A stretch of DNA of 64,000 nt, taken from positions 1,995 to 65,994 of the forward strand of contig JAJFUE010000152.1 in assembly GCA_021372575.1 (NCBI GenBank). Reading direction: 5' to 3'. The position numbers and the translations under genes are program-made. This stretch comes from a bacterium. Its GTDB lineage: Bacteria > Sumerlaeota > Sumerlaeia > MVZB01. Below are positions 8,081 to 43,279 of this stretch, in pieces. The notes under the pieces were generated by a model. It made no database searches, was not told where the DNA came from, and worked only from the letters and a program-made list of their open reading frames with translations. Each line of letters begins with the position of its first letter. The stretch's first letter is position 1.

Positions 8081-8090
8081 GTCAATACCT

Positions 8091-9627: not shown

Positions 9628-9662
9628 GTGGTGGGTCATGAAGGACTCAAACCTACGACCAA
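9628..9662 (-). repeat. Degenerate partial tRNA-Lys 3' copy (T-arm plus acceptor); internal att-like repeat between tandem elements
   Basis: tggtgggtcatgaaggactcaaacctacgaccaa is similar to the tRNA 3' end. The preceding 12 nt (ttcaaactgagtgg) also match the flank of the intact tRNA. Confidence 0.6.
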
Positions 9663-9951
9663 ATGCCCCGCCGAAACACGGCGAGTATACAACAAACCAT
9701 TATTGTGCAAATGCGAAGCGCGGGTTTTGTGTCGGTTTCTGATTTTCGGCAGACTCATGTTGTTCGGCTTTGGGCTGCTGAAATGGCCCGGTCAGATCAT
9801 GAAGATGCTGAGCCATTCGTGCGATCTCTGTCAGCCTTTCTTTGCTCGCATGGTCGTAATGACGACTGAGAACGGATTCCCGAAATGAAAGACCCCGATG
9901 GACCGTTTGTCCATCGGGGCACTTCCGATCTGATCGAGAGATGACAACTTA

Positions 9952-10123
9952 TCCCGCTATTGCGGGAAACTGGCCGCCAGTGCGGTCAAGCCCTGCGGCA
10001 ACTACTCCGCCCGCTAATGCGGGCAACGATCGTCAGCACGATCCGCATCATCATGCGCGAGCTCTTGAGGCTCTGAAAGTTATTCCGCTTCTTCATCTGA
10101 CCAATCCCGCCGACGCGGGAAAC
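9952..10123. repeat. Three copies of the hairpin motif (T)CCCGC-N4-GCGGG-(A/C)AAC in the remnant element next to the tRNA
   Basis: tcccgctattgcgggaaac (9952-9970), gcccgctaatgcgggcaac (9009-style spacing, 10009-10027), tcccgccgacgcgggaaac (10105-10123). Spacings are 57 and 96 nt. Confidence 0.5.
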
Positions 10124-10315
10124 TTCGCTCGCCTATCCGTCCAGGGACGATCACCACTGATGGACCAAATGCAGGTTTTGTGCAAGTGTCTCACCCACAT
10201 CGCAGCCATATCGCAGGCCTATCACAGTTTTTTGGGTCCGTTTTGGATTGAATCAAGCAGGCATAGAAAAAGCCCTAAACCAAGTAGATCGAATGGCTTA
10301 GGGCTTCAAACTGAG

Positions 10316-10391
10316 TGGTGGGTCATGTAGGACTCGAACCTACAACCAACAGATTAAGAGTCTGCTGCTCTACCAATTGAGCTAATGACCC
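10316..10391 (-). tRNA. tRNA-Lys (anticodon CTT), 76 nt including the encoded CCA
   Basis: The reverse complement GGGTCATTAGCTCAATTGGTAGAGCAGCAGACTCTTAATCTGTTGGTTGTAGGTTCGAGTCCTACATGACCCACCA folds as a cloverleaf. Anticodon loop CTCTTAA. Confidence 0.9.
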
Positions 10392-13527: not shown

Positions 13528-13777
13528 TGCTCCCAGGCGCGAAATAAAATCAATCGGATCATATCAGACCGCCCCGCCCGCGTCCATTGTCAGTTCGTGC
13601 TCGTGCTTGCAATCCAAACCTGGCATAGCCAGAACCAACTGCCCCAGCCATTACCGAGTCATCGTAATCGAATCCCTTTCGTCCGCCCATCCCTCGCTCA
13701 CGCTCGGGCTAGATTGACAAAAATTTTCCGGCAATGCGCCAATCGAGATGGTTCCAAGTTTGGCGATTCGATGATGG

Positions 13778-13818
13778 GTTCGATTACGATTACGATTACG
13801 AGCACGAGCACGAACGGA
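13778..13818 (+). repeat. Hexamer-tandem dispersed repeat, copy 1: GGTTCGATTAC(GATTAC)2(GAGCAC)2GAACGG
   Basis: Direct reading of the sequence; member of a 7-copy family (see findings). Confidence 0.85.
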
Positions 13819-13873
13819 CAACTGTCGGCAAGCGCTCTACTGCACCATTCACCATCAACCATTCACCCTTCCC

Positions 13874-16800
13874 CTACAGCGGCTTGATTTCCGGATTCTC
13901 CGTCGTGCCCTTGACCTGCGCGCGAATCACCTTGCCGACCAGTTGGTTGATCACCTCGACCGCGGTGCCGAGGAGCGGCACGCCCTCCACAATCTGGAAC
14001 ACCTGCGCCGCGATCTGCAGGTCGAGCGTCTTGTCGAACCCGACCGACCCGCTGAGCTTCAGGTTGATGATCGGATTGTCGAACACCATCGCCGTGCTGT
14101 GGACGCGGTTGTTCTCGATCGTGACCGGCCCGTGAACGGTCGAGAACGAAATGTCCTCGAGCAGCGGCAGCTTGAGCAGCCCGCCCAGGCTGTGCAAGAT
14201 CGCGTTCGACACCAGCCGGCTTTGCTTGATCGTCACCTGCCCCTGTCCGTTCACCTGGTCCTTCACGCGGAAATCTTTTTTAACCTCGAGCCGGCCGGTC
14301 ACGACGCCGGAGAAAATGCCGCCCGGCTTTTGTTTTTTGCTCAGCGCCTCGGAGAGTGGCCGCAGCTCGACGTCGCGCGTCTCGAACGATGCCTCGAGCC
14401 GCCGGCTATAGACCGACCCGCTGAGGTCCGCCTTGCCGCCATAGACCGACGCCTGCGACAGGTACCAGCGCACCATCGCCGGCAGCCCGCGGAAATCATC
14501 CACCGTCAGGATGCCGTCGATGTCGCCACATTCGATCCCCTTGCACGAACCCGTCCGTGTCTTGAACGTGCCGCGAATGCTGAACGACGGCTTGAGGTTC
14601 GGGTTATACGGCTTGTCCGCCGGAGGCACCAATTCGGGCAGGTTTTTCGGCCGCCTGGCGTTCCATTGCCCGAGCCACGGCGTGAGGTCGAAGTGCTCGC
14701 CGGTCACGCCGAAGTTCAGCGTCCCTTCCGGGTTCGGCGGCATCGTCCACGTGATCTCGAGCGACGACTTCACGTTGCGCGAGCCGATGGGCGTCACCGC
14801 CAGCGGCTCGGGCGACCACAGCCGCCCCTGGTTGTAATACACCATCCCCGTGATTCCCTTGAGCGGCGTCGGCATGCGCCAGAACGTCATCTCGCCGTCG
14901 CGCATCCGGATGATCCCGTCGAAGTCCCAGCGCCAGTCCGCCACCAGTTGCGGCACCATGTGCGCCTCGTCGTGCAGGCCCGTGAAGTAATCGGCGAGCG
15001 CCGGCCAGCTCGTCGGCGCCTTGAATCCGGGTCGCGGCTCGATTTTCTGGTGATGCTCGATCGTCGCCGCGCCGGCGACCGTGAACAGCTCGAGCCCCGG
15101 CGGCGACCGCCGCTGCATCTCGGGCAGCTCGCCGTCGAGCTTCAGGTTGACCAGCCCGCCGCCCGGCTTGAGCACGCCTTCGGCCGAGACATCGACGCCG
15201 CCGAACTTGCCGCTTGCCGGCTCGATGCGCAGCTCGTCGCCCTTCAGCTCGAGCCCGAGGCGCTTGAATCGCAGCGGCCCGTTCACGCGCGCAATCGTGA
15301 AGCTCGTGCTGAAATCATCGACGTCGATCCGGCCGCCGGTCTCGAGCTTGCGCCAGTCCGCCAGCGGGCCGGCGACGCTCACCCTGGCCACCGCATTGCC
15401 GCCGAAATCGCTGAACCCGAACCGCCGCGGATTGGCCCCGTAGCGATGCGCCTGCGCCAACGCGTTCGCCAGCGACGTGGCCGCCTCGATCTTCAGGTCG
15501 GCGCGCGGATTCACCCACGGCTCCGGTTTGCCGCTCAGCGTGCCGTCGATCGTCACGCGCCCGCCGAGTGTTTCGCCCGCCAGCTTCTCGAAGCGCAGTG
15601 TCCCGTTCGACCAGCCGATCCGCCCGCCGACGCCGCTGACCTGCGGCAGCTTCCCTCCGCGCATGCTGCCTTTATTCACCGACAGTTGCGCGGTGACATC
15701 GGGGCGCGTCCCGTTCTTTTTTATTGTACCGCGCCCTTCGAAGTCGCCGTGGATCACGAGCGGCCCCTCGACGCGCGCCAGCGCGAGCGTCGTCGCGAAA
15801 TCCTTGAGGTTCACCGAGGCCTGGACCGGCCGCGACCGCCAGTCGGCCAGCGGCGCGTTTTTCATCTGGATCTCGAACATGCCCGACCCGGCGACCGGCG
15901 GCAGCGGCTCGATTGGGCGCCCCGTCGCCGCCGCGAGCTCCATGACCTGGTCGGCGATCGCCGGGAGCTCACCGCCGATCCGCGCATCGACCGTGAGCGT
16001 CGGCGACGACCACAGCAGCCGCTTCCCCGCCATCGATCCGCTCAGCGAAAGCGCCGTCGAGCCCATGCGCCCTTCGATCCGCCCGGCGCGCGCCTCGTTC
16101 GGCGCGAGGTCGATCCGGCCGTTGATTCCCGTCACCGGCGCCGGCAGCCGCGCGTCGCGCAGGGTCACGTCGCGGAAGCGAAGCCCGCCGTTGATCTCCG
16201 CGCGCGCCAGCGACGCCACGATCCCTTCGCGGGTTGGCTCGGCCAGCGTCAGCGTGCCGCTCCCGTTCAGGTCGCCCGTGAACGTCGGCCCGGCCACGAT
16301 CGGCCCGTCCGGCTTGGCGGTCCCGCCGGTTTTCCAGTTCACCCTCAGGCCCTCGACCGAGCGCGGCAGCGTTCCCGTGGCGACACCGTCGATCTCGATC
16401 GGCAGTCCGCCGTAGCGGCACGCGAGCCGCTCGACGCGCAGCGTCCCGGTCGTCATCTGCACGCGCCCGGAGATCGCGCGCACCGGCAGCGGCAACTTCG
16501 CCGACGCCACGTCGATCCCCCACGCCTGCCCGTTCAGTTCAATCACGTCCGGCGCGAGCAGGATCGATTCGCCCGCCGCCCGCCCGGAAACCTCGATTTT
16601 TTCAAGCCCCGTCGGGATCAGTTCCATGCCGTATCCGGGCAGCACGTGGTCGGCGATCAGTTCCACGTCGCCCATGCCGGCCGTGAACCGCTGCGCGCGC
16701 AAATCGTACGGCCACGGCGACTGCGTCCCGGCCCATCCCGCCAGCCCGATCGAGGACAGCGGCGTGCTGACGACGAGCCTGTCGATCTGCACGCGCCGGC

Positions 16801-17746
16801 CGGCCGGATCGAACTTGCCTGCCCACACCATGCGCGCGTAATCGATCACGCGCGTCTTCTCCTCGAGGATCAGCACGTTATCGACCTGTGATCCGCCCTG
16901 CGAGCGCCACGCGCCGTCCTTGCCGCGCTCCACGCTGGCGCTCACGCGAATCATCCCGGTGCTGAACGGAACCGGCACGCGCACCGACCGCAGGTCGCGG
17001 CTGCCGAACGCCTCGAGCCGCAACTGCACGTCGGCCATCCGCGCCGCCAGATCCGGCCGCACCGTGAGGAGAAACTCGCGCCCCGGTCCCGGTCCGTCGG
17101 CCAGCCTGCCAGAAAGCATCACCTGCCGCGGCCGCGTGTTTTGCTCGAAATCGACCGTCAGCGCCATGCCGTTGACCGACATCCGCACGTGCGAATCGCG
17201 CTCGCTCCGCTCGATCCAGCGCAGATCGACCGGCGCCACCGTGAGCTGCCTGAGCGCCGCCAGCGGCGGCTTGGCGCCGAGCTGCGAGCGTTTAAGCCGC
17301 TCCTGGAGGATGTTGATCACGCGCGGCCACGGCGCCATCAGCTCGAGGTGCTCGTCCTTCGTGATCACCCGCACGACCGTCGGCCCCTCGAGCTCCAACG
17401 AGTCGATCACCCTCGGCCCGCGCCCGAAAAGAAGCTGTAACAACGAGGCATTGACCCGCACGCGCCGCAGATACAACAGTCGATCACCGGTTTCGGGGTC
17501 CTTCAGCACCGGGTTGTCGATCGTCACGTCCGCCAGCGCGACCCGGATCGTCGAGCGCTGGTAATCGAGCGGCAGCCCGACAGTTTCCGCCCAGCGCTCC
17601 TTGAATTTTTTGTCCAGCCATGGGATCGACAGCGGATAAAACAGAATGAACAGCAGCCCGCCCGCGATCAGCAGCAGGAAGACCACCAGCGCCCGCACCC
17701 CGAACCGCAGCATCTTCCAGCGCCGCTTGATGCGCCTCAGCCGCAT
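13874..17746 (-). CDS. AsmA-family / TamB-like outer-membrane biogenesis protein (N-terminal membrane anchor, long beta-rich periplasmic region)
   Basis: About 1290 aa. N-terminal TM segment ALVVFLLLIAGGLLFILF. C-terminus ...NLKLSGSVGFDKTLDLQIAAQV...VKGTTENPEIKPL is typical of the AsmA_2 C-terminal domain. Start chosen at the Met before the TM segment (17746); the ORF is open to 17923. Confidence 0.65.
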   Translation of the reverse strand: MRLRRIKRRWKMLRFGVRALVVFLLLIAGGLLFILFYPLSIPWLDKKFKERWAETVGLPLDYQRSTIRVALADVTIDNPVLKDPETGDRLLYLRRVRVNASLLQLLFGRGPRVIDSLELEGPTVVRVITKDEHLELMAPWPRVINILQERLKRSQLGAKPPLAALRQLTVAPVDLRWIERSERDSHVRMSVNGMALTVDFEQNTRPRQVMLSGRLADGPGPGREFLLTVRPDLAARMADVQLRLEAFGSRDLRSVRVPVPFSTGMIRVSASVERGKDGAWRSQGGSQVDNVLILEEKTRVIDYARMVWAGKFDPAGRRVQIDRLVVSTPLSSIGLAGWAGTQSPWPYDLRAQRFTAGMGDVELIADHVLPGYGMELIPTGLEKIEVSGRAAGESILLAPDVIELNGQAWGIDVASAKLPLPVRAISGRVQMTTGTLRVERLACRYGGLPIEIDGVATGTLPRSVEGLRVNWKTGGTAKPDGPIVAGPTFTGDLNGSGTLTLAEPTREGIVASLARAEINGGLRFRDVTLRDARLPAPVTGINGRIDLAPNEARAGRIEGRMGSTALSLSGSMAGKRLLWSSPTLTVDARIGGELPAIADQVMELAAATGRPIEPLPPVAGSGMFEIQMKNAPLADWRSRPVQASVNLKDFATTLALARVEGPLVIHGDFEGRGTIKKNGTRPDVTAQLSVNKGSMRGGKLPQVSGVGGRIGWSNGTLRFEKLAGETLGGRVTIDGTLSGKPEPWVNPRADLKIEAATSLANALAQAHRYGANPRRFGFSDFGGNAVARVSVAGPLADWRKLETGGRIDVDDFSTSFTIARVNGPLRFKRLGLELKGDELRIEPASGKFGGVDVSAEGVLKPGGGLVNLKLDGELPEMQRRSPPGLELFTVAGAATIEHHQKIEPRPGFKAPTSWPALADYFTGLHDEAHMVPQLVADWRWDFDGIIRMRDGEMTFWRMPTPLKGITGMVYYNQGRLWSPEPLAVTPIGSRNVKSSLEITWTMPPNPEGTLNFGVTGEHFDLTPWLGQWNARRPKNLPELVPPADKPYNPNLKPSFSIRGTFKTRTGSCKGIECGDIDGILTVDDFRGLPAMVRWYLSQASVYGGKADLSGSVYSRRLEASFETRDVELRPLSEALSKKQKPGGIFSGVVTGRLEVKKDFRVKDQVNGQGQVTIKQSRLVSNAILHSLGGLLKLPLLEDISFSTVHGPVTIENNRVHSTAMVFDNPIINLKLSGSVGFDKTLDLQIAAQVFQIVEGVPLLGTAVEVINQLVGKVIRAQVKGTTENPEIKPL

Positions 17747-17944
17747 GGCTGTGGCGTGCAGTCCGCTTTCCGGCCTCAGGGGTGGCTTGTGGCGTTTCTT
17801 CACCATCGCGCCATTTTGCCCGACCACCGCGCAAACGATCAAGTTGCTTGCTCGATCCTGTTGTTGCACTATCGAATGGTTTATCATGGTTCCCATGGGT
17901 CCCATACGACCCATAGGACGCACGATCCACGACAGGAGCGCGCC

Positions 17945-26337: not shown

Positions 26338-26504
26338 CAATCCTGAAAGAATATGGATATTTCTGCCGCTTCTTCAGGCCTCTCTGCATCACCCATCAAT
26401 TGTGAATCAAAATCGAAAAGTACTTTTGTCCACATCTGTATGTGAAATCTTGTCTTTTTATCGTTCATCATTCATCATTCACCATTCCAAGCGGGAGTCG
26501 CCTT

Positions 26505-27257
26505 ATGAGGCCGTGCTGGTTGATCGGAATGATCGCGCTCATCCTGATGCCGCGCGCGGTTGCCCAGTTGCCTGAAGCAACTACTTACACGCTCCCGCGC
26601 TTGAATGCGCTGCCGAAGGCGAAAGTCGTCCGCACGATCGACGGCGACACGATCGATTTGAAAATCGGCGGCAAGATCGAGAGTTGCCGTCTGATCGGGA
26701 TCGACACGCCCGAGCTGAAAGGCGACGCGGAGAAGACGTTTTACGGCCGCGAGGCGGCGTGGTACACGTTCAACCTGCTCGCGGGGGAGTCGGTGTGGTA
26801 CGAGGCCGATCCCAAAATGGCGCGCGACACGTTCGGCCGGCTGCTCGTGTTTGTGTACCGGGCACCGGACGGGCTGTTCGTGAACCTGGAGCTGATACGG
26901 CTCGGTTACGCGCGCGTTTATGAATATGAGCATGCGCGCGCGGGATTGTTCAAAGGCTATGAGGCGCGTGCGCGAGAGGCCAAGAAGGGTTTGTGGAATC
27001 CGACCCTGAAGAATGAGACATCGAAAGCCGCCGCGAATTCGAACGCCCAGACCGCCGCACCAAGACAAACCGTATCGGCATCGACCGGCGCAGCGGCCGC
27101 GAGCCCGGGAAACGACGCCGATACTGTTTATGTCACCAAATCAGGGAAGAAATATCACCGCGCCGGATGCCGATCGTTGAGCAAAAGCAGCATCCCGATC
27201 TCGCTGGCGACGGCGAAGGCTCGGAGGCTGCAACCGTGCAGCGTGTGCAAACCGTAG
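26505..27257 (+). CDS. Thermonuclease (SNase / micrococcal nuclease-like) family protein with a C-terminal Cys/His zinc-ribbon-like tail
   Basis: Signal peptide MRPCWLIGMIALILMPRAVA. VVRTIDGDTIDL...CRLIGIDTPE is the SNase core. C-terminal ...KYHRAGCRSL...CSVC. Confidence 0.7.
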   Translation: MRPCWLIGMIALILMPRAVAQLPEATTYTLPRLNALPKAKVVRTIDGDTIDLKIGGKIESCRLIGIDTPELKGDAEKTFYGREAAWYTFNLLAGESVWYEADPKMARDTFGRLLVFVYRAPDGLFVNLELIRLGYARVYEYEHARAGLFKGYEARAREAKKGLWNPTLKNETSKAAANSNAQTAAPRQTVSASTGAAAASPGNDADTVYVTKSGKKYHRAGCRSLSKSSIPISLATAKARRLQPCSVCKP

Positions 27258-27323
27258 GGAGATGAGGGCGGGATGGATTGAATGGGAAGAATGGGAGAAA
27301 AATGATTTGGCGATGCGGTGAGT

Positions 27324-27372
27324 GGTTCGATTACGATTACGATTACGAGCACGAATACGAATACGAATACGA
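27324..27372 (+). repeat. Hexamer-tandem dispersed repeat, copy 3: GGTTCGATTAC(GATTAC)2 GAGCAC (GAATAC)3 GA
   Basis: Direct reading. Abuts the terminator hairpin. Confidence 0.85.
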
Positions 27373-27403
27373 AAAAAAGGCCGGCGATATGCCGGCCTTT
27401 TTT
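27372..27403. terminator. Bidirectional rho-independent terminator between convergent genes
   Basis: aaaaaaaGGCCGGCgatatGCCGGCCtttttt. Confidence 0.8.
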
Positions 27404-27419
27404 CGATATCGATCCGAAA

Positions 27420-28169
27420 CTACATCAGCGTATTGCCGTCGGCGTCGATCATCTTGCCGGTCAGGATCATGACGACATCGACCAGGGCCCAGATGCCGAA
27501 GCCGCCGAGCGTCACGAGGCGCAGGATGGCGTCCTTTTTGCGGCCGAGATAGAACATGTGAAGGCCCAGGCAGCCGGGGCCCGGCAACGCCAGAATCATC
27601 GCGAGCCACTTGTTCTTGAAATCGGCGCTCTTGGGGGCCGACTGCGCCATCGGCGAGCCGGCCTCGATCGGCTGGAGATCCTTGGTGGCCTCGAGGGCCT
27701 GCGCCAGCGTCATGTTGCCCGGGTACGAGCGCAGCAGGCGGCCCAGGGTCTTGTTCATGTCGAGGAACAGGCCGTGCCAGTCGAGCTCGAGCTTGGAGCG
27801 CGTGTTTTCGGGCATGACCTGGATGTGAGCGAGGCTGACGGCCATGGACAGCACGTTCATGATGTCGTTGCCGCGGTCGAACTTGTCGGCCATGAGCTCG
27901 ACGAACATGAACTGCTTGCGGGCGAGCTGGCTCATGACCTGGAAGAAGGCCTTTTCCTCGGCGGGGGTGATTTCCTTTTCGGTGAGGTCCTCGGCGAAGA
28001 AGCGGAAGAACTGCATCCACAGGTTGATGTATTCGCGGCACACGACGATACGGTTGTCGAGCTTGACCAGATTCTCGACATACATCTTCTGTTCTTTGGT
28101 CAGCCGGACGGGGGCCTGCTTGTCGCCCTTAAGGTCCTTGGCTGCGCCGCCTCTAATGTTGATTGCCAT
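27420..28169 (-). CDS. TM2-domain membrane protein; the N-terminal roughly 120-aa cytoplasmic domain is paralogous to the protein encoded at 31632-32060
   Basis: C-terminal KNKWLAMILALPGPGCLGLHMFYLGRKKDAILRLVTLGGFGIWALVDVVMILTG matches the TM2 domain consensus. N-domain similarity to the 142-aa protein (ITPAEEKAFFQVMSQLARK vs ITPEHENAYLQLKSEVSRL; ...WHGLFLDMNKTLGRL vs ...WHRIYLKITRALGAL). Confidence 0.65.
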   Translation of the reverse strand: MAINIRGGAAKDLKGDKQAPVRLTKEQKMYVENLVKLDNRIVVCREYINLWMQFFRFFAEDLTEKEITPAEEKAFFQVMSQLARKQFMFVELMADKFDRGNDIMNVLSMAVSLAHIQVMPENTRSKLELDWHGLFLDMNKTLGRLLRSYPGNMTLAQALEATKDLQPIEAGSPMAQSAPKSADFKNKWLAMILALPGPGCLGLHMFYLGRKKDAILRLVTLGGFGIWALVDVVMILTGKMIDADGNTLM

Positions 28170-28227
28170 GGGTTATCTCGTCAAGGCCCGGCGGCGCCGC
28201 GCGCCAGCCGGGCCACCCTCCCCCCGT

Positions 28228-28353
28228 GTTAGTCTTTCTTGATCAAGTTGAACGCAAAGAAGAAATACACCATCAAGAGCAGGATGGCGACAAACGTCAA
28301 CCCCTCGATGCAATAAACCAGGTTGTTGCCCGAGATCAAGCCGGATATGAATC
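28228..28353 (-). CDS. 42-aa single-pass membrane peptide (MGFISGLISGNNLVYCIEGLTFVAILLLMVYFFFAFNLIKKD)
   Basis: Not in the ORF track (shorter than 60 aa). Lies between two co-oriented operon genes, has a good hydrophobic helix and an ATG start. Confidence 0.4.
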
Positions 28354-28379
28354 CCATTCGTAGCGACCTCTCAATTCAA

Positions 28380-31300
28380 TCAGCCGACCCGTTCGACCCC
28401 GACCGTCTTCTCCTGCATTCGCGGGTGCTCGACCTCGGCCTGGATCTTCTGCTCGGCCTGCTTGGCCTTGAGCATCTGCATGTAGGCGGTCTGGACGATA
28501 TTCGACGCGTCCGTCGCCGAATACTGGTCCAGGATCAGCATCTTTTCGAAGTTCTGGGCGGCTTCCTTGGCCAGCGACAGCATGCGAAGGGTTTCTTCGT
28601 GAATGGCCTGGCGCGTGGCGGGAACATTCATCCGCTCGACGCTGGCCCGGATCTGGGTCAGCTGGTTGCGCATTTCCGAGGGCGGCGCGGCATTGAGCAG
28701 CGAGACGGCGCGCGAGCGGCCCTGCGGGCCGATGACGAACTTGAGCATCGTCGTGCTGCCCATGTTCAGGACGATCCCGAACTTGTCGATCTGCTTGTTG
28801 AAATCGTTGAGGTACTGGGTCAGCTCGCTGTCGAACTGGCGCTGGTCGAGGCGCAGCTGAAGCGAGTCGAGCAGCTCCTGGGCGTCCTTGACGTTCTGGA
28901 AGCTGGAGCGGAACTTCTCGTTCTTGAAGTCGAGCTGGGCGTATTTGAGCTTGTTTTCGATGTCGCGCACGAGGGGCTCCTCGTCGCGGCGGGCGCCGCG
29001 GGCGTCAAGCGACGTGAGCCGCTCCTGCAAGGCCGTGGTGACGGTCTTGAGTGCCTCGGGCGTCGATTCCATCAGGCCGGCCAGCTGGGCCTCGAGCAAC
29101 TTCACCTTGTCCGCGTAGTCCTGGTACTTCTTGGGGTCGAAGTTGTTCTTGAGCTGGTTCATCTCGGCCATGATGCGGGCCATGTCCTTGATCTGGTAGA
29201 ACCCGGCGCCGCTCTTGCCGGCCTGGTCGAGGCGGGCCTTGAGCGAGTCCATCTGGTCGGCGAAGGCCATACGCTTGGCCTTGGCCGTCACGTCCTGGGC
29301 CGTGGTGAGCGCGAAGCTGGCCTCGACCTGCGCCTGCTGGTAGTTGCCCGAATCCATGTGCTCGCGGGCATTCTTGAGGCTGACGATCGCCTTGGCCATG
29401 CGGTCGGGCTGGTATTCGAAGCCGTTGAAGCGGCGGGCCGACGCGATGGCGTCCTCGGCGTTGTTGACCTCGGCCATGAGGGCGCCCTGGGCGGCATCGA
29501 CGGCCTGCGCGCCGATTTCGACGGCCTGCTCGTAGTGGTTCTGCGCGATCATGTCGTCCAGGTTCTTGCGCAGCGCCTGGGCCTGCTGGAGTTTTTCGGG
29601 GGCGAAGCGCGGGGCGCCGGCGGCGGTGGCGCGGCTGATCAGGATCTCGCTCTGGCGGGACATGTCCTCGGCCCACTTGCGCAGCGATTCCTGGGTGGCC
29701 TGGTTGGCGACCGACTGGGCGTTGGTCGCGGCCTCGATGGCCTCCTGCATGTTGCCGCCGCGCTCGAGCGAGCCCTTGGCCTGGTCGAGCAGGGTCATGG
29801 CCTGGGCCAGGGACTGGCTTTCATAGCGCTCGGCCCGTTTCTCGCGGGCCTGCTTGAGCTGATCGGAAGCCTGGTCGATGCGGCTGACGGCGACGCGCTC
29901 GAGTTCCTGGTAGAGGATGGAGAGCTGGGCCTTGGTGTCGGCGGCGCGGCGGACGGCCTCGCGGTACTGGGCCTTCTGGATCAGGGCCTTGGTTTCGTCG
30001 AGCATCGAATGGGTTTTGTCGAGCTCGACCTTGGCATACTGGCGGCCGCCCTCGCGTTCGTAGCGGGAGAGCTCGTTGGCGATCTCGAGGACGGAGTTGT
30101 GGGCGACGACGTGGAACGTCTCGCCGGTGATCTCCTCGGCGGACGTGCTGACCTTGCGGGCCACTTCGATCGCGACGTCAAAGTCCTTTTCCTGGCGGCG
30201 CACGGTGGCGAGCGTCAGGCTCAGGCCGGCGGTGCTGAGGCGGGAGCGAAGCTCTTCCTTCATGCCCTGCTTGGCGTCTTCCATGGCGCGGTCGGCGCCG
30301 GTCCAGTCGCCCGGGATCTTCTTGTCGAATATCTTCTCCATGGTCTTGAACGTCGCCTCGGCGGCGCCAAGCTGTTCGGAGGCCTTGTTGATTTCGTTCT
30401 GCGCGTAGGCGTCGAATTCGGCGTCGATGTTCTTGACGACGTCGAGGGCGCGCTCGGAGGTGGCGCGGGACTCGACGTAGAGCTGCTGGTCGAACTCGCT
30501 CTGGGCCTTGGAGGTCAGGTCGTCAAGCTGCTCGACGCGGCCGGGCAGGTAGATGCGGGCCTTGTTGTCGGTGAGGCGGGTGATCTCGTTGCGCGCGTTG
30601 GCCAGCTGCATCTTGGCGGCGTTGACCTTGGTCTCCTGGATGAGGGCCTCGGCTTCCTTCTTGACGTCCGGGGCGCCCTTGAGGACGGAGACGTAGTTGG
30701 CCTGGTCGAACTTGAGGAGCAGGTCGGCGAAGTCCTGGTGGGCCTTGGAGTCGGACTGGGCGGCGAAATCGGGCGACTTGAGCTTGACGGCGGTGGCGAG
30801 CAGGCCCTCGATTTCCTTGAGCTGGTTGTCGCTCTTGACGCGGCGGGTTTCGGTGATGCCCTTGTCGCGGGTCTGGCGCGCGGCGAGCCGCTCGTTCAAT
30901 GCGGAGCGGTAGTCGTTGTCGCGCTTGATGAAGGACTCGATCTTCTTGATGTGGTCGTCCATCTTGGTGATGGACTCGGCGTAGAACTGCTCGGCGCCCT
31001 CGTCGATCAGTTCCTTCCTCATGTCCTGGGTTTCCTTGAGGCCCTTTTCGGCGTCCTGACGCAGGTTGGACAGGAGCGACTGGGTGTCGCCGATGACCTT
31101 GAGGAACGTTTCGATGGCGGCCTCGTACTTCTGCTTGTCGTACTGGTCGTTGCGGCCGTGGTCGTTGAGCTGCTGGATGGCGTTGTACTTGCCCTGGTCG
31201 ATGGAGGCGGCGTCGTTCTTCTTGGCGATCTGGAGCCAGCCCCACGCCTCGTCGCGCAGCGCGCTGGCGCGGCGGGTGATGGTCTCATTGAGCAGGTTCT

Positions 31301-31622
31301 TGGCCAAGTCGGCGGCCTGCTTGGCCGACACACGCGCTTCCGCATAGCGCGCCGTGCCGATTTCGCCGGCGGCCTTGGTGATGGCCTGGTCGGTCTGCTT
31401 GAGAAGTTCGGGCGCGAACCTGATCGCGTCGTGTTTTTGAGCCTCGGCCTTGCGGTTCTGGGCCTGACTCTGGGAGTACTGGGCCAACATTTTGTTGCAG
31501 CCCATCGTGGAAATCAGGACGAGGCACAGGCTCAGCAGTCCCAAGTTCCGGCGCAGACGATTGACGGTGTGCACGACAGCATTCCTCCCAGGCAGACTTA
31601 ACAGGATCCGTGGCAATTTCAA
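28380..31622 (-). CDS. 1080-aa all-alpha (coiled-coil / helical-repeat) exported protein, probable lipoprotein; hypothetical
   Basis: N-terminal signal ...LGLLSLCLVLISTMGC. Extreme K/E/Q/A-rich helical composition with recurring ...YxxAxxxxxxAxxxL... periodicity. The opposite-strand 1092-aa ORF is a G/L/V/D-rich antisense artefact. Confidence 0.65.
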   Translation of the reverse strand: MKLPRILLSLPGRNAVVHTVNRLRRNLGLLSLCLVLISTMGCNKMLAQYSQSQAQNRKAEAQKHDAIRFAPELLKQTDQAITKAAGEIGTARYAEARVSAKQAADLAKNLLNETITRRASALRDEAWGWLQIAKKNDAASIDQGKYNAIQQLNDHGRNDQYDKQKYEAAIETFLKVIGDTQSLLSNLRQDAEKGLKETQDMRKELIDEGAEQFYAESITKMDDHIKKIESFIKRDNDYRSALNERLAARQTRDKGITETRRVKSDNQLKEIEGLLATAVKLKSPDFAAQSDSKAHQDFADLLLKFDQANYVSVLKGAPDVKKEAEALIQETKVNAAKMQLANARNEITRLTDNKARIYLPGRVEQLDDLTSKAQSEFDQQLYVESRATSERALDVVKNIDAEFDAYAQNEINKASEQLGAAEATFKTMEKIFDKKIPGDWTGADRAMEDAKQGMKEELRSRLSTAGLSLTLATVRRQEKDFDVAIEVARKVSTSAEEITGETFHVVAHNSVLEIANELSRYEREGGRQYAKVELDKTHSMLDETKALIQKAQYREAVRRAADTKAQLSILYQELERVAVSRIDQASDQLKQAREKRAERYESQSLAQAMTLLDQAKGSLERGGNMQEAIEAATNAQSVANQATQESLRKWAEDMSRQSEILISRATAAGAPRFAPEKLQQAQALRKNLDDMIAQNHYEQAVEIGAQAVDAAQGALMAEVNNAEDAIASARRFNGFEYQPDRMAKAIVSLKNAREHMDSGNYQQAQVEASFALTTAQDVTAKAKRMAFADQMDSLKARLDQAGKSGAGFYQIKDMARIMAEMNQLKNNFDPKKYQDYADKVKLLEAQLAGLMESTPEALKTVTTALQERLTSLDARGARRDEEPLVRDIENKLKYAQLDFKNEKFRSSFQNVKDAQELLDSLQLRLDQRQFDSELTQYLNDFNKQIDKFGIVLNMGSTTMLKFVIGPQGRSRAVSLLNAAPPSEMRNQLTQIRASVERMNVPATRQAIHEETLRMLSLAKEAAQNFEKMLILDQYSATDASNIVQTAYMQMLKAKQAEQKIQAEVEHPRMQEKTVGVERVG

Positions 31623-31631
31623 ATGCCGGCT

Positions 31632-32060
31632 TTATTTCTTCTTGACCGGTTCCTTCGAGCGAAGCCGATCGCGATGCATGTGAGGGTAGTAACCCGACTT
31701 CATGACTTCAAGGGCGCCGAGGGCGCGCGTGATCTTCAGGTAAATGCGGTGCCAGCCTGCGTAGTAATTCTGGCGCTCGGCCGCGCCCTGATTGCTCAGA
31801 TGCTCCATCGTCATGGCGTTCTTGAGCATCTCCATCATCTTGTCGCCTTCGAATGCCAGGCCGCGCGGAAGGCGGTCCGAGACCATTCGGTAAAGCCGCG
31901 AGACTTCGCTTTTGAGCTGAAGGTAGGCGTTCTCATGCTCGGGCGTGATCGGCCCCTCCCCAAACGCCTTTTGGAAGATCAGCTTGATGCGCATCCATGC
32001 CTCGAGCAATTTCTTGATCGATTCGTGGAGGTGTTCTACATCGTCAACCGTCAGTGCCAT
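31632..32060 (-). CDS. Small cytoplasmic protein, paralog of the N-domain of the TM2 protein
   Basis: See the alignment evidence under 27420-28169. Only a 9-nt gap to the downstream gene. Confidence 0.55.
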   Translation of the reverse strand: MALTVDDVEHLHESIKKLLEAWMRIKLIFQKAFGEGPITPEHENAYLQLKSEVSRLYRMVSDRLPRGLAFEGDKMMEMLKNAMTMEHLSNQGAAERQNYYAGWHRIYLKITRALGALEVMKSGYYPHMHRDRLRSKEPVKKK

Positions 32061-32094
32061 ATGCCCTGAATCTCTTTCCGGTTAATTCGCAAGA

Positions 32095-33153
32095 CTACAC
32101 GCCGCCCTCGATGCCGCCGCCGCCGCCGGGCCCACCCATGCCGGGCATGCCGGGCATGTTGCCCATCGGATTCATCGCGCTCTGGCGCGCCGACTCTTCC
32201 GCGCGCATCAGGGCCTGAGGATCGCTGAACGGGGTCCACTGCTGCCCGAACGGGGGCGCGACCGTCGGCGGCTGGGGCGGCAGCGGAATATAGAGCGAGT
32301 AGAACTGGCTCGTCATGTCATCCTTGTTGGTGCGGAATTCCTGAAGGAAGCGGACGGCCCAGTTGCTCTTGATGTTGGCGTCCTTTTCCTGTTCTTTCTG
32401 GCGATAGTTCGGAACGGTCACCGTGGCCGAGGTCTGCACCTCGCGGAACGTGAAACCGGGGCCGCCCTCGGGGACCGGCACGAGCCGCCACGCGCGATTG
32501 CGCGGCGCAGTGTCAGAGCGCTCCGTGCTGGCGATCGGGATCCCGAAATACTGGAGCGGGGTCATGCCGTCGGCGACAACAAGCGCCTTGACCAGCTGTT
32601 CCTTGAACCGCTGGTTCGACATCCCGAGGGCGTCCTTGCGCTCATCGACCTTGGCCATCTCGCCGTCGTTCGGCGTCACGTCGCCGTGCGTGCCGTCATC
32701 GAAATATTTTTCTGCTTCGGATTGCGGAACTTTTTTCTGAATCGGCTCGTCGAGCAGCGAGCCCGTGATCGCGTCGAACACGCGCGTGCCGGTGATGACG
32801 GTGATCGTCTGGCCGGTGGGAAGCACCGGGGCCGGAGCCGTCGTCGTGGGTTGGTTGGGAGCCGGGGTGCCGCTGGTCGGCGGAGGAGTTTGCGGAGGAG
32901 TCTGTGGCGCGGGCGGCTGCGTTGTCGGCGGAGCGCCCGCCTGCGTGTTGCCCTGCTTCAAACCTTGCGCGCGCTTTAAGGCTTCGTTGCCGACGCCCGA
33001 GCTGACGGAACCGCTGCTCATCTCCGACGAAATCGCGGAGGTGGCCTCCAATTCCATAAGCCCCTGCGCGGCGCCGCGAGTTGGCGTCAGTACGATCAAC
33101 GCCGCGGCCAGAGCCAGCGACCCGATCCACTTGGCCGTCGATTTGATTTTCAT
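32095..33153 (-). CDS. Secreted protein with a Pro/Thr-rich linker and a Gly/Met/Pro-rich C-terminal tail; hypothetical (first gene of the operon)
   Basis: Signal peptide MKIKSTAKWIGSLALAAALIVLTPTRGAAQG. PPTTQPPAPQTPPQTPPPTSGTPAPNQPTTTAPAPVLP linker. C-terminal MNPMGNMPGMPGMGGPGGGGG. Confidence 0.55.
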   Translation of the reverse strand: MKIKSTAKWIGSLALAAALIVLTPTRGAAQGLMELEATSAISSEMSSGSVSSGVGNEALKRAQGLKQGNTQAGAPPTTQPPAPQTPPQTPPPTSGTPAPNQPTTTAPAPVLPTGQTITVITGTRVFDAITGSLLDEPIQKKVPQSEAEKYFDDGTHGDVTPNDGEMAKVDERKDALGMSNQRFKEQLVKALVVADGMTPLQYFGIPIASTERSDTAPRNRAWRLVPVPEGGPGFTFREVQTSATVTVPNYRQKEQEKDANIKSNWAVRFLQEFRTNKDDMTSQFYSLYIPLPPQPPTVAPPFGQQWTPFSDPQALMRAEESARQSAMNPMGNMPGMPGMGGPGGGGGIEGGV

Positions 33154-33460
33154 GGCCTTGTCATCCTTCTAAACCATGCAAAAACAGACATCCGCCCTCC
33201 GCTGGTTCTAACGGAAGACGAACTGGACTGTCAATCGACAAATCGCCCCACGCGGCCGAATTTCCGCCTTCGGCACCCGCATCAGGCCTCCATCACTCAC
33301 AAATGTGGTTCCAAATCCCTCAAACTGCAACCAGAAAATTGTTGTCTCATATGGATTTCTGCATCCGTACCCTGATTCTACACCCGAACGCGTTTTTAGG
33401 GGCATCGATTTGCCCCAAAGAGCCCCCAGGACCCAATGGACCTCAAGGCCTAAAACCGAT

Positions 33461-35365
33461 TCATTCGAATATGACGTTGATCTCCGCGATGGCCGCGCCG
33501 AGCGTACGGAAATCGCTGTAGCCGGGCTTGTCCTGCGCGGGCGAATGCACCCAGGACAGCCCCAGCTCGATGCGGTTGTATCCTTTCGTGAGCGCGCCGG
33601 CCGGCACTTGCCAGGTTTGCGTCGAGAATCCCGCCGGCAACGCGCGCCGCTCCAGGAGCAGCGTGCCGACGCGGGGCTGGATCCACTGCGGCGGCCCGCC
33701 GGGCCACTGGAACGGCATGAGCGTGATGCTGAGCCTGGCGGGAGCGGCTCGCAGGAGGGGGAAGTTGAACCAGCCGACGGTGCGCGTGAGCCAGCGCACG
33801 GAAAAATCCTTCGACCACGTCTCGGGCTCGCTCCAGCCCGATCCGAGCAACACCGCGGGGACCCATCCCGGACGGAACGCCGGCGGGTCGCCGAGCGCCG
33901 CCGTGAGCTGGCCCAGTTTTTCGATCGGCGGCGCCTGGGCGAGCGGCTCGATCATGACGCCGCGCACAGTCGCAGTTTTCCCCTGATCGCCGAAGGCCTG
34001 ATCGACGCGCCAGTAGGGCGAGTCGGGCAGGTTTTGCGCGGCGTCGGCGGTGAACAACGGTGCGTTCACGCCCTCGCGATGCAGGTAATATTCAAGCGGC
34101 ACATGCACCAGATGGCTGGTGGCGACGATGCGCTGGCCGGGTTGAACGCGCTCGCGCAGGTAACGGGCCGCCGCGCGCCAGTCCGTTTTCCGATCGCGGT
34201 CGGCGGCGTGGAACGCAAGCATGGCGGCGGCGGCCGCGAGAACGATCGCCGGCATGAGGAACGGACGCCTCACGCGTTCGGCGATCGCCAGCGCGCCTTG
34301 CGCCATCAGCATGCACAGGCCCGGCACGCAATAGATCGTGTAGCGCGAGTAGAACTTGCGGTTGATGAGCGCATAGAACACGACGGCCGCGACCGGCAGG
34401 CCGATCGACCACAGCACGACGAACGCCGCCGCGCGCCGGTCGGCGCGGAAGGCGCGAACCGAGCCGATGAGCACGAAGGCCATTCCAAGAAGCGCGGCGC
34501 CCCATGCCAGAGCCATTTGCGGCTGGGGTCCGGCAAGGTGCTCGGCGATCCACCCGACCAGCATTGCCGGATGGATCGGAGTGAATTTCCAGAAGTATTC
34601 GGAGGGGGTGGGGATATCGACGCGCGAGCGCAGCGGCAAGGCCGCGAGAACGACCACGCCGATCAAAGCCAGAAACCAAAAGAGCGGGCTGAAATCAAAG
34701 CGCCGCCGCTCGAGTGTGGGGGCAATCAGCACAAACAGCAGCTCGCACGCAAGCACCAGCGCGGTTGCATATAATGTATAAAGCGCGACGACCGTGACGA
34801 CGCCCAAGCCGGTCAACCACGCCCACGCGTTTTTTTCGTGCTCGTGCTCGTGCTCGTGCTCGTAATCGTAATCGTAATCGAATACCCTTCCGGCCCTCAC
34901 CCACCACTCCCAAAACAGCCACATCTGACCGATGAGGAGCGCGGTGATCATCGCGTAGGGCCGGGCCTCGCGTGAATAATGAATGAGCAGCGCGTGCGCC
35001 GAGGCCAGCGCCAGCGTCGCCCACGCCACGCGCGATCCGAACAACCTGCGCGCGAAACCGAAGATCAAAACCAGGGTGATGACGCCCGCGATGGCCTCCG
35101 GCAGGCGATGGCTGACTTCCTTCGCGAGCGGCAAGCGGTCGGCAACGGACTGGATGTAATAGTCGAGCGGCGGCTTGTCGCGCGGGATGCGGTTGAGGAT
35201 TTCTGACGGCGGACCCTCGACGATCCGCGCGCTGAAGACTTCGTCGATCCAGAAGCTCTCGCGCCCCAGATCATGCACGCGCAACCAGACACCGATGGCG
35301 AGCAACGCGATGGAAATGCCAATCAGCAACGCGCCGGGTCGGGAGTATGTCGTTTCAGGGTTCAT
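33461..35365 (-). CDS. GT-C fold glycosyltransferase (family 39/83, ArnT/PMT-like) with an in-frame hexamer-repeat insertion
   Basis: ...ESFWIDEVFSARIV... and ...PPLDYYI... are ArnT/PMT_2 hallmarks, in a multi-TM topology. The internal stretch RVFDYDYDYEHEHEHEHEKNAW is encoded by repeat copy 4. Confidence 0.7.
   Translation of the reverse strand: MNPETTYSRPGALLIGISIALLAIGVWLRVHDLGRESFWIDEVFSARIVEGPPSEILNRIPRDKPPLDYYIQSVADRLPLAKEVSHRLPEAIAGVITLVLIFGFARRLFGSRVAWATLALASAHALLIHYSREARPYAMITALLIGQMWLFWEWWVRAGRVFDYDYDYEHEHEHEHEKNAWAWLTGLGVVTVVALYTLYATALVLACELLFVLIAPTLERRRFDFSPLFWFLALIGVVVLAALPLRSRVDIPTPSEYFWKFTPIHPAMLVGWIAEHLAGPQPQMALAWGAALLGMAFVLIGSVRAFRADRRAAAFVVLWSIGLPVAAVVFYALINRKFYSRYTIYCVPGLCMLMAQGALAIAERVRRPFLMPAIVLAAAAAMLAFHAADRDRKTDWRAAARYLRERVQPGQRIVATSHLVHVPLEYYLHREGVNAPLFTADAAQNLPDSPYWRVDQAFGDQGKTATVRGVMIEPLAQAPPIEKLGQLTAALGDPPAFRPGWVPAVLLGSGWSEPETWSKDFSVRWLTRTVGWFNFPLLRAAPARLSITLMPFQWPGGPPQWIQPRVGTLLLERRALPAGFSTQTWQVPAGALTKGYNRIELGLSWVHSPAQDKPGYSDFRTLGAAIAEINVIFE
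34836..34882 (-). repeat. Hexamer-tandem dispersed repeat, copy 4, in frame inside the GT39-like CDS
   Basis: tcgtgctcgtgctcgtgctcgtgctcgtaatcgtaatcgtaatcgaa is the reverse complement of TTCGATTAC(GATTAC)2(GAGCAC)4GA. Confidence 0.85.
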
Positions 35366-38089: not shown

Positions 38090-38147
38090 GATGTGCGACC
38101 GCGTTCCACCCGCATTGGTAGATCAAATTAAGAGGGTTCACAAGAGA

Positions 38148-38184
38148 TTATTGTCCATTCATGCTCGTACTCGTGCTCGTAATC
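38148..38184 (-). repeat. Hexamer-tandem dispersed repeat, copy 5
   Basis: The reverse complement reads ATGTTCGATTACGATTACGAGCACGAGTACGAGCATGAA. Confidence 0.8.
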
Positions 38185-38263
38185 GTAATCGAACATATCA
38201 GCGATTCGACGACCGAGACCTGTTCCGATCAGAAGGGCGTGCCGCCAGCCCCGCAGGGGCAAC

Positions 38264-42116: not shown

Positions 42117-42131
42117 TGGAATTTCAAAAAA

Positions 42132-42170
42132 ATCGTGCTCGTGCTCGTAATCGTAAACGCAATCGAACAC
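42132..42170 (-). repeat. Hexamer-tandem dispersed repeat, copy 6 (degenerate); forms an inverted pair with copy 7
   Basis: The reverse complement reads GTGTTCGATTGCGTTTACGATTACGAGCACGAGCACGAT. Confidence 0.75.
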
Positions 42171-42257
42171 GCGATCGCATGGAGACCATCATGCCGCATG
42201 GAAGCGAATTCGATTGCGACAAAAAATAAATATGTCGAGCGTTTCAGCGAAGGATCC

Positions 42258-42317
42258 GGATTTTCGATTACGATTACGAGCACGATTACGAGCACGATTA
42301 CGAGCACGAGCACGACG
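42258..42317 (+). repeat. Hexamer-tandem dispersed repeat, copy 7 (longest): GGATTTTCGATTACGATTACGAGCAC(GATTACGAGCAC)2GAGCACGACG
   Basis: Direct reading. Confidence 0.85.
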
Positions 42318-42340
42318 ACTTGCCATGCTTTGCGCCGAAT

Positions 42341-43279
42341 CTACTTTGATTCGCTCTCGTGAATCTCGGGCGGCTCGGGATGCACGGTCACGTCGGCGCC
42401 GGGGATGATCTCCTGCAGTTCCTGCTCGATGCGCTCGGTGAGGGCGTGGACGTTGCGCAGGGTCTCTTCCCCGCTGACCAGGATGTGAATATCGATGAAC
42501 GCCTTGGGGCCACTGTAGCGCATGCGCACTTGATGGCAGTCGATCACGCCGGGGATCGATTCCACCTTGCGCGTGATTTCATCGGCCTTGCCGCGCGGGG
42601 CGGCGTCGAGGAGCGCCTGGATCGAACGCATGCCAAGCCGCACGCTGACCCAGGTCATGATCGCAGCCACGACGAGCGCGCTGATCGAGTCCACCTTGTG
42701 CAGGAACGGCCATTGCGGCAGGGACTCGCCGGCCTTGACGCAGATGAGGCCCAGGATGACGACCGAGGAGCTCCACACGTCCGTGCTGAAATGAAGCGCG
42801 TCCGCCTCGAGCGCCTGGCTGTTGTGCTTGATCGCGGCGCGCATCAGCATGCGCGACCGCGTGATATCCACCACGATCGACGTCGCCATCACCGCGAACG
42901 ACCAGAAGTTCACTTCGATTTCAATCTGGGTCTTGCCGAGCAGGCGCTCGGTGGCTTCCATAACGATCCAGACGCACGTCGCAAGCAACAACACAGTCTC
43001 GATGAGCGCGGAGAAATTCTCGACCTTGCCGTGGCCGTAATGGTGCCCGATGTCGGCCGGCTTGCCCGAGATCCTGACCGCGAAATAAGTCGTCACGGCC
43101 GCGAGAAAATCGAGCGCCGAGTGCGCGGCCTCGGCCATGATGCCGAGGCTGCCGGTAAGGAGTCCCACGACCAGTTTCATGGACGTCAAACCGGCCGCCG
43201 CCATCACCGACGAAAAGGCCACGAATCTTTTTTCCTGATCCGCGTGAAGCTGGGTTTGATCGCTCAATGCCATGACCAA
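42341..43279 (-). CDS. Cation diffusion facilitator (CDF) family metal efflux transporter
   Basis: ...LKLVVGLLTGSLGIMAEAAHSALDFLAAV...HHYGHGKVENFSALIE... is the CDF signature. Six TM segments plus a C-terminal cytoplasmic domain. Confidence 0.8.
   Translation of the reverse strand: MVMALSDQTQLHADQEKRFVAFSSVMAAAGLTSMKLVVGLLTGSLGIMAEAAHSALDFLAAVTTYFAVRISGKPADIGHHYGHGKVENFSALIETVLLLATCVWIVMEATERLLGKTQIEIEVNFWSFAVMATSIVVDITRSRMLMRAAIKHNSQALEADALHFSTDVWSSSVVILGLICVKAGESLPQWPFLHKVDSISALVVAAIMTWVSVRLGMRSIQALLDAAPRGKADEITRKVESIPGVIDCHQVRMRYSGPKAFIDIHILVSGEETLRNVHALTERIEQELQEIIPGADVTVHPEPPEIHESESK

Follow-up and report, generated by a model that had tools for sequence, protein, structure and literature searches.

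Operon structure and boundaries

The DNA analyzed here, referred to as the window, is a stretch of 64,000 nucleotides of contig JAJFUE010000152.1, which belongs to a metagenome-assembled genome (MAG) of Candidatus Sumerlaeota/Sumerlaeia (BRC1), as the names under which identical and near-identical proteins are deposited show. Its minus strand carries five co-oriented open reading frames (ORFs), named A to E in the order A-B-C-D-E, which constitute one real operon and an undescribed, conserved gene cluster. The ORF list places A, coding for a secreted protein of 352 amino acids (aa), at 32095-33153; B, coding for a predicted cytoplasmic four-helix bundle of 142 aa, at 31632-32060; and D, coding for a single-pass membrane microprotein of 42 aa, at 28229-28357. 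The positions assigned to the five genes by an earlier reading of the sequence alone (the original prediction) were thus confirmed. Gene C, coding for a predicted lipoprotein, occupies 28380-31574 when read from a GTG start (1064 aa) or 28380-31622 when read from the first TTG (1080 aa). The 249-aa product of E (27420-28169) is composed of a four-helix domain (residues ~30-150), a linker and a TM2 domain (residues 185-233).

The grouping into a single operon is based on co-orientation, short gaps, Shine-Dalgarno-like motifs and one flanking terminator. A purine-rich motif of the Shine-Dalgarno type precedes each of the five starts. The gaps A-B, B-C, C-D and D-E measure 34, 57, 22 and 59 nt with the GTG start of C, instead of the 9-35 nt first proposed; a B-C gap of 9 nt is obtained only with the TTG start. 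GTG 31574 lies 8 nt after the motif GGGAGGA, and the 1064 aa read from it match in length the deposited identical protein (P0091); for these reasons it is regarded as the likelier start. The 1080 aa originally predicted correspond to the ORF read from the first TTG. A long plus-strand ORF (28323-31601) overlaps C; the GC content at third codon positions (GC3) of the minus-strand frame is 0.92, and the plus-strand ORF is the antisense shadow usual for a GC-rich gene. GC and GC3 of the cluster agree with those of the surrounding genes.

At its downstream end, the operon is closed by a bidirectional intrinsic terminator (27372-27403), which starts 16 nt past the stop codon of E, reads A7-GGCCGGC-gatat-GCCGGCC-T6 and is shared with a convergent SNase-family gene (26442-27257) that it faces. 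The hairpin was found by direct reading of the sequence and was not listed by a simple terminator scan; its predicted RNA fold reaches -26.9 kcal/mol (z = -4.9), a value equalled by none of 200 shuffles, in support of the terminator originally described.

At the upstream end, a minus-strand spacer of 307 bp (33154-33460) separates A from a PMT_2-type glycosyltransferase gene. Its GC content is 52%, versus 62-67% for the genes, as expected from the AT-richer region of about 300 bp noted before, and it presumably holds the promoter and the leader of the operon. No convincing sigma-70 promoter was found by scanning the spacer: a TTGACA at 33234-33229 is not accompanied by a good -10 hexamer. A terminator-like site, formed by a hairpin with a 14-pair stem and a T-run (33190-33223, minus strand), is located ~240 nt past the upstream gene and 37 nt before the ATG of A. 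It has no Rfam match, and could be either the terminator of the upstream gene or a leader/attenuator of the operon. An Rfam search of operon and leader returned nothing above noise.

When the five proteins were compared with Pfam, NCBIfam, PADLOC and the Protein Data Bank (PDB), four gave no significant match, and the TM2 domain of E was the sole match above threshold. In the literature on Sumerlaeota, DUF4398, TM2 and PilZ/PilT/Omnitrophota, no description of the cluster, or of the domain common to B and E, was found. The cluster is undescribed and falls outside any described kind of system, which is not in itself the demonstration of a new mechanism.

Conservation across Sumerlaeota

In order to evaluate the conservation of the cluster, a degenerate DNA pattern, written for the motif WHxx[FY][LIM]x.NKxLG of E, was run over one genome per GTDB species. 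The scan produced 74 loci, 61 of which were confirmed by a hidden Markov model (HMM) of the domain; the remaining 13 are chance matches, to be compared with the ~9 expected by our own estimate. Neighbourhoods were read within 8-kb blocks, and all counts are restricted to loci whose block covers the position in question.

A homologue of C adjoins E in 30 out of 30 Sumerlaeota-type loci with covered flanks, and B is found upstream of C in every locus covering that position. A D-like peptide of 32-48 aa lies between C and E in all the 36 loci covering the gap, while a homologue of A, recognized by family alignment and HMM, directly precedes B in every locus whose block extends there. The order A-B-C-D-E was also found on the homologue-bearing contigs L001/L002, L003/L004, L005, L006/L007 and L008; flanking genes differ from locus to locus while the order stays, and L005 keeps it although its C is only 28% identical. 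The cluster is single-copy and present in all 30 covered loci. Gene set and order are conserved in all covered genomes of the phylum, and the synteny suggested as a check of the original prediction is therefore there.

The integrity of C was likewise a point on which the prediction could have failed. The gene is intact, coding for 1037-1189 aa, in about 20 complete loci, and only in two MAGs, L018 (5123-7998) and L074 (1098-4380), is it broken into two frames that overlap. These may be frameshifts due to low-coverage assembly or true pseudogenes; for L018, an assembly error is possible because coverage is ~6x.

Two observations concern the surroundings of the cluster. In some relatives a sixth co-oriented gene, coding for a pentapeptide-repeat protein of 177-180 aa, follows E (L001, 10784-11326; L003, 10552-11085); the window lacks it, and there the terminator comes directly after E. 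In L006 (1-7345) the cluster adjoins Mu-like prophage genes (Portal_Mu, Phage_Mu_Gp36), probably an unrelated insertion.

Gene C codes for a predicted lipoprotein made of helical repeats

The N-terminus of C, M-HTVNRLRRNLGLLSLCLVLISTMG↓C, was read directly, and consists of a signal peptide ending in the lipobox-like sequence STMG↓C (residues 22-26). The charged n-region, hydrophobic h-region and lipobox of a bacterial lipoprotein, substrate of signal peptidase II, are all present, and the pair G25-C26 is kept in at least 90% of the 13 homologues compared. By its signal sequence, C is predicted to be a conserved lipoprotein, in agreement with the signal peptide and subsequent Cys originally pointed out.

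Ala accounts for ~14% of the residues of C, and Gln, Glu and Lys for 8% each, a composition which had led to its description as an almost purely helical K/E/Q/A polymer. The helical part of this description is upheld by an AlphaFold2 model, built with the 13 homologues, which is all-helical with a mean predicted local distance difference test (pLDDT) of 86.8. The polymer part is not: the model repeats a period made of a ~43-residue helix, a 4-residue turn helix and a 19-residue helix, and the prediction for C, locally of high confidence, is a folded chain in which three-helix repeats of ~72 aa follow one another about 13-14 times. The arrangement is called spectrin-like because the long helix is common to successive three-helix units. 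A disordered polymer similar to late embryogenesis abundant (LEA) proteins was rejected, since the high pLDDT and the conserved hydrophobic positions speak for a folded rod.

Repeats were not detected by self-BLAST of C, and emerge only by profile-profile comparison. The alignment was cut into 14 units of ~72 aa, which were compared by hhalign: 25 pairs matched in register at a probability of at least 55%, the best reaching 95.7%, values that helical composition may inflate. The shared register argues for true repeats. Homologues in the set used for the alignment are 1037-1095 aa long, down to 28% identity. In the distant homologue of L008, a low-complexity insertion of ~150 aa, rich in Pro, Ser, Gly, Ala and Thr, is found in the middle of the rod (at about 1600-2100 of L008), as if a flexible hinge were tolerated there.

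The periodicity of DUF4398 had been indicated as one to look for. The turn helix of the C repeat contains an [FY]xP motif, as in DUF4398 (PF14346), and 7 of the 13 homologues match this family below threshold (E <= 0.1, best E = 8.3e-5). C itself remains under the cutoff, with 16.5 bits versus 27.9 (E = 0.012). These results support a distant resemblance of the repeat unit to DUF4398, without membership. The LipL71 model (NF033163) scores 18.5 bits, against a cutoff of 600. A Foldseek search of the model of C against PDB gave nothing below E = 0.017, the weak neighbours being vinculin, talin and catenin bundles, the Staphylococcus EbhA rod and the spectrin-like N-domain of the Borrelia lipoprotein BB0323. 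When the profile of C was searched against PDB sequences, only the long helices of influenza HA2 were matched (E about 0.005); they are attributed to helix bias and are not relatives.

B and E are paralogues with a moving membrane anchor

B and the N-domain of E are genuine paralogues, aligned by BLASTP with E = 7e-12 and 25% identity over 103 aa. Both the paralogy and the coexistence of a soluble and a tethered version of one module had been predicted, and both hold. The AlphaFold2 model of B (pLDDT 86) is a four-helix bundle, with helices at residues 5-33, 40-61, 72-89 and 93-121, followed by the sequence GYYPHMHR and a basic tail. Its comparison with PDB by Foldseek returned generic four-helix bundles only; syntaxin Habc, which ranked first, was set aside (root mean square deviation 18 Å).

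Neither B nor E has a signal peptide. This, together with N-in anchors, soluble orthologues devoid of TM2 and tail-anchor/type II architectures across the family, leads us to infer that both are cytoplasmic four-helix bundles. Of the coherent, undescribed envelope system originally proposed, coherence and novelty stand, whereas a purely envelope location does not: with the B/E module probably in the cytoplasm, the unit would span the envelope.

Residues 185-233 of E are a true TM2 domain, a C-terminal membrane anchor of two helices (PF05154; E = 2.2e-12, 47.4 bits versus a cutoff of 27.9). In a paper on Cap1, "TM2 domain" denotes the second transmembrane (TM) helix and not PF05154, and was discarded as a lead. 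Altogether, 42 orthologues of B and 47 of E were found. TM2 is missing from about half of the E orthologues, whose C-terminal tails are instead basic or amphipathic (for example GFLARFRKS, GFFAKLLRRA or GLFGKKK). The commonest state across the species genomes is a B with a C-terminal tail-anchor TM, accompanied by a soluble E of 132-170 aa. The subclade of the window is different: B ends in GYYPH[LM]HR plus a basic tail, and E carries either TM2, which is confined to this subclade, or a basic/amphipathic tail. In most covered genomes, a recognizable membrane anchor is found on one of the two paralogues. The shift of the anchor between B and E argues for a joint action of the two at the inner membrane, on its cytoplasmic side.

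Since orthologues replace TM2 by a basic or amphipathic tail, or move the anchor to B, the domain says little about function: it is an interchangeable anchor, not the core of the cluster, and carries no specific functional message. Its co-occurrence with the giant lipoprotein, put forward as a check of the original prediction, was mostly not found.

Genes A and D

At its start, the product of A has a Sec signal peptide, whose cleavage context, Ala↓Gln, is conserved. A low-complexity linker of variable length, rich in Pro, Gly and Gln, precedes a conserved core, and the protein ends in a Gly-rich tail. In the family alignment, the core is marked by TRV.D, by Y.DDG.HGD....DG, by a K/R-EQL helix and by F/Y-xLY[IV]P.PP.PP...PP...W.P[FL]; in the protein encoded here, the second and the last take the form YxDDGxHGDxxxxDG and PPxPPxVxPP...W.PF. 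A has no Pfam match, and the known models that touch it are limited to two, both under their cutoffs: choice-of-anchor X (NF041940), on residues 151-165 containing the DDG motif (20.8 versus 25 bits), and the PA1041 anchor lipoprotein (NF053612; 14.6 versus 250 bits).

D is a conserved single-pass membrane microprotein. Its short N-terminus, N-[YH]-[VI]-[YH]..[EQ] in many species, is followed by one TM and by a conserved C-terminal tail, ..Y.F..LNLFKK[DE] or ..F.FNL[FI]KK[DE], placed in the cytoplasm by the positive-inside rule.

The B/E domain outside Sumerlaeota

With a profile built on the two paralogues together, a search was made of 1.84 billion representative proteins, clustered at 50% identity. 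The profile reached 421 clusters at E <= 1e-3, 265 of them at E <= 1e-10; the family HMM is matched by B at 1e-43 and by E at 7.5e-47. Each helix of the ~120-aa domain has its conserved positions: the first a Trp, the second E..F, the third an S-L turn and the fourth W-H...G. Most members combine the domain with a tail-anchor TM. Other architectures are a single domain extended only by a basic or Pro-rich tail; the domain plus a TM and a periplasmic domain of ~180 aa, for a total of 330-365 aa; and two or three tandem domains with a C-terminal amphipathic helix (KKGFFARLFGG). Family members show no consistent match in Pfam, and the profile found nothing among PDB sequences. The B/E four-helix domain is a new family, with neither a Pfam entry nor a PDB match.

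Outside Sumerlaeota, carriers are mainly MAGs of Candidatus Omnitrophota, with others labelled Planctomycetia, Nitrospirota, Caldisericota and Bacteroidota. No C-like protein was found in these domain-bearing loci. In 13 of the 27 confirmed non-Sumerlaeota loci, an E-like tail-anchored gene lies directly downstream of a T2SSE ATPase gene, on the same strand. In Omnitrophota the ATPase is a 464-aa PilZ-T2SSE fusion with a PilT/PilB-like core, kept between dnaE and the E-like protein in nine loci (L016, L030, L047, L052, L055, L065, L067, L068 and L073); a plain T2SSE of 362-375 aa is found in L045, L054, L062 and L076. This gene order suggests that the fusion may be an ATPase controlled by cyclic di-GMP, with a membrane tether of its own. 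Members of 340-360 aa, denoted X, occur in the arrangements pilB-pilC-X-dprA (L086, 1-4811), T2SSF-X (L009) and X-dprA (L087), which hints at a possible link with type IV pili and natural transformation. In some Omnitrophota loci (L050, L085), the order dnaE-domain-HU-hisS is kept without the ATPase, and for this reason part of the association may be inherited gene order.

The same association was looked for around the Sumerlaeota cluster. No T2SSE was found anywhere in the window by a phmmer scan of its whole length, and no type IV filament genes were found among the Pfam-annotated neighbours, which cover about 10-47 kb of the window. The combination of T2SSE, T2SSF, prepilins and prepilin peptidase that makes up a type IV filament system is not found in the cluster. 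In L001-L008, the flanks contain no adjoining type IV filament genes; N_methyl genes of L001 are ~8 kb away, on the other strand.

Other elements in the window

Runs of hexamers, (CGATTA)n(CGAGCA)n, form a short dispersed element present in both orientations at six or more sites, mostly at gene ends (13759-13821, 27306-27381, 34824-34895, 38147-38208, 42121-42180 and 42243-42343). One copy abuts the operon terminator, and another is in frame within the ORF of a 634-aa PMT_2 glycosyltransferase, where it encodes FDYDYDYEHEHEHEHEK. It looks like a genome repeat of the kind of repetitive extragenic palindromes (REPs) or miniature inverted-repeat transposable elements (MITEs).

A tRNA-Lys(ctt) gene lies at 10316-10391, and 45 nt from its 3' part recur, with 98% identity, at 6289-6333. 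The block of ~4 kb delimited by the two (6289-10391) contains genes for a ParB_N protein, an N6/N4 DNA methylase and a radical-SAM SPL-like protein, and bears the signature of an integrated islet, though no integrase was seen. On the minus strand, a 1349-aa ORF (13874-17923) weakly matches, at its C-terminal end, YhdP (AsmA-like lipid transport). The match would fit an envelope with two membranes, which is relevant to the anchoring site of C.

Possible roles of the cluster

All functions considered for the five genes, scaffold, tether and stress sensing included, are what we infer from the features described above. The reading tentatively favoured, without great confidence, is that of an envelope-spanning scaffold, tether or spacer, which couples a periplasmic rod to a membrane-docked cytoplasmic B/E pair. 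C would be lipid-anchored through its N-terminal Cys and, given the Asn at position +2, would be sorted to the outer membrane if Lol rules of the E. coli type hold in the phylum. It would extend in the periplasm as a rod of roughly 40 nm, by our own estimate from 13-14 units of about 3 nm each. Its conserved C-terminal end would meet the short periplasmic N-terminus of D, and the cytoplasmic KK[DE] tail of the latter, and/or the anchor of B or E, would join a B/E hetero-oligomer docked at the inner face of the cytoplasmic membrane. A, secreted and provided with a flexible Pro/Gly linker, could be a periplasmic or outer-membrane partner. The whole would serve structurally, as a tether, spacer, scaffold or ruler joining the two membranes to a cytoplasmic platform. 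Such an apparatus appears to be Sumerlaeota-specific.

Several points weigh against this scheme. The predicted template modelling score (pTM) of the model of C is 0.35, which leaves the overall shape and length of the protein tentative. A 40-nm rod exceeds a typical periplasm, if upright, and the Lol +2 rule may not apply in the phylum. No clear TM anchor is present on either paralogue in L021, L044 and L074. Physical contacts among the five proteins are suggested by synteny alone. Finally, the only functional partners with which the B/E domain is associated elsewhere are type IV pilus genes, of which the scaffold makes no use.

This last association is the basis of a rival explanation, possible in our opinion, if doubtful: the cluster could be an accessory of a type IV filament machine (pilus, type II secretion-like or competence system), in which B and E dock a PilB/PilT-type ATPase or a PilC platform whose genes lie elsewhere, with C, D and A as periplasmic alignment or stator parts. 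The reach of the domain profile over 421 clusters, the E-like gene directly after T2SSE in 13 of 27 loci, and the class with domain, TM and periplasmic domain in the pilB-pilC-X-dprA and T2SSF-X arrangements speak for it, and bitopic tethers of T2SSE ATPases are a known kind of protein (see below). However, no gene for T2SSE, T2SSF, a pilin or a prepilin peptidase was found in the cluster or, within the ranges searched, in the window, and none adjoins the cluster in L001-L008. The loci without ATPase (L050, L085) leave part of the link perhaps to inherited gene order, and nothing similar to C accompanies the domain outside Sumerlaeota.

An envelope-stress or geometry sensor, in which C reports perturbations of outer membrane or periplasm to D, and D alters the state of B/E, is considered unlikely. 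Its logic would be analogous to that of RcsF/IgaA or Psp; components on both sides of the membrane and a conserved microprotein with a charged cytoplasmic tail would suit it, and the bundle of B generically resembles the ligand-binding domains of Tsr, KinB and NarX (TM-scores 0.45-0.61). This similarity, however, is not significant in Foldseek, no E-value being below 0.09, and no kinase, phosphatase, DNA-binding, cyclase or anti-sigma motif was found in the five proteins or conserved alongside the cluster. An anti-sigma factor, considered separately, was dropped, as neither a ZAS motif nor a sigma factor gene in the Pfam-annotated flanks was found.

A mobile, phage-derived or anti-phage defence cassette, or a set of chance neighbours, is highly improbable: the flanking genes do vary between genomes and the L006 cluster does lie beside Mu-like prophage genes, but none of the five proteins belongs to a PADLOC-DB family (for which defence was dropped), the E-like DNA pattern is unmatched in 2.9 million viral contigs, GC and GC3 are like those of the surroundings, neither an integrase nor repeat boundaries were found, and a single cluster is kept in all 30 covered loci, with C diverged down to 28%, a synteny which excludes chance neighbourhood.

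A broader view combines the scaffold with the pilus association: B/E could be an unrecognized membrane-docking partner of type IV filament ATPases or platforms, which in Sumerlaeota would have been duplicated and wired, via D, to a secreted partner and to a spectrin-like rod, ~40 nm long and anchored in the outer membrane. We regard it as rather speculative; if true, it would imply a new envelope-spanning machine, or molecular ruler, with no described counterpart.

To our knowledge, Sumerlaeota have no cultivated representative. Being present in every covered genome, the cluster likely encodes a basic structure of the cell envelope of this phylum. With about 13-14 spectrin-like repeats, C would rank among the longest predicted periplasmic rods, and its conserved length lets one ask whether bacteria beyond the Lpp-bearing proteobacteria set the spacing of their membranes by a protein ruler. 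The B/E domain, found beside pilB/pilT-like and pilC genes in Omnitrophota and other phyla, is a candidate for a missing tether of type IV filament ATPases, while the interchangeable TM2 anchor warns against naming proteins by TM2 alone. Conserved unknown operons are common in candidate phyla; what is distinctive here is the rod lipoprotein C, the anchor-swapping pair of paralogues, and the link to pilus ATPases of an unannotated domain of 421 clusters.

Comparison with known systems

Among the known systems closest to C are the DUF4398-type lipoproteins (PF14346; the PA1041 family, the N-region of Leptospira LipL71/LruA and the N-terminal domain of BB0323), which are, as is predicted for C, all-helical periplasmic modules exported by Sec and lipobox signals. 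LipL71 is weakly matched by C, and all scores of this type are under the family cutoffs. Known members contain a single unit or two, joined to peptidoglycan-binding domains of the OmpA or LysM type, whereas C has about 13-14 predicted units, no peptidoglycan-binding domain, and a dedicated operon with predicted cytoplasmic partners. BB0323 of Borrelia is reported to have a spectrin-repeat fold, rare in bacteria (PMC12758692). By its model, C resembles spectrin and Ebh-type rods in the tandem array and in the long helix common to successive three-helix units; it differs in the length of the unit (~72 aa, versus ~106 aa for spectrin) and in its predicted periplasmic, lipid-anchored location, and does not match the spectrin or FIVAR/GA families of Pfam.

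Lpp (Braun lipoprotein) and domain II of TolA are, similarly to what is proposed for C, helical, lipid- or membrane-anchored elements whose length relates two membranes, and the conservation of length in C, while its sequence diverges, adds to the likeness. Lpp forms a trimeric coiled coil of 58 aa with a link to peptidoglycan; TolA operates together with the TolQR motor. C has no sequence or fold relationship with either, is predicted to be a chain of three-helix bundles rather than a coiled coil, and is not accompanied here by motor genes.

TM2 proteins (PF05154), such as YozV of B. subtilis and eukaryotic TM2D1-3, are matched by residues 185-233 of E, where however the domain acts as an exchangeable anchor. 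Another parallel for the B/E family is offered by GspL, BfpC, TcpR and PilM/PilN, bitopic inner-membrane tethers of T2SSE ATPases. They have a common architecture with B/E proteins, namely an N-domain in the cytoplasm, a single TM and, in some cases, a domain in the periplasm, and the non-Sumerlaeota genes of the family also share their position beside T2SSE or T2SSF. GspL and PilM use an actin-like fold, unlike the four-helix bundle modelled for B, and the Sumerlaeota cluster, in which the two paralogues accompany the putative rod, is devoid of an ATPase gene.

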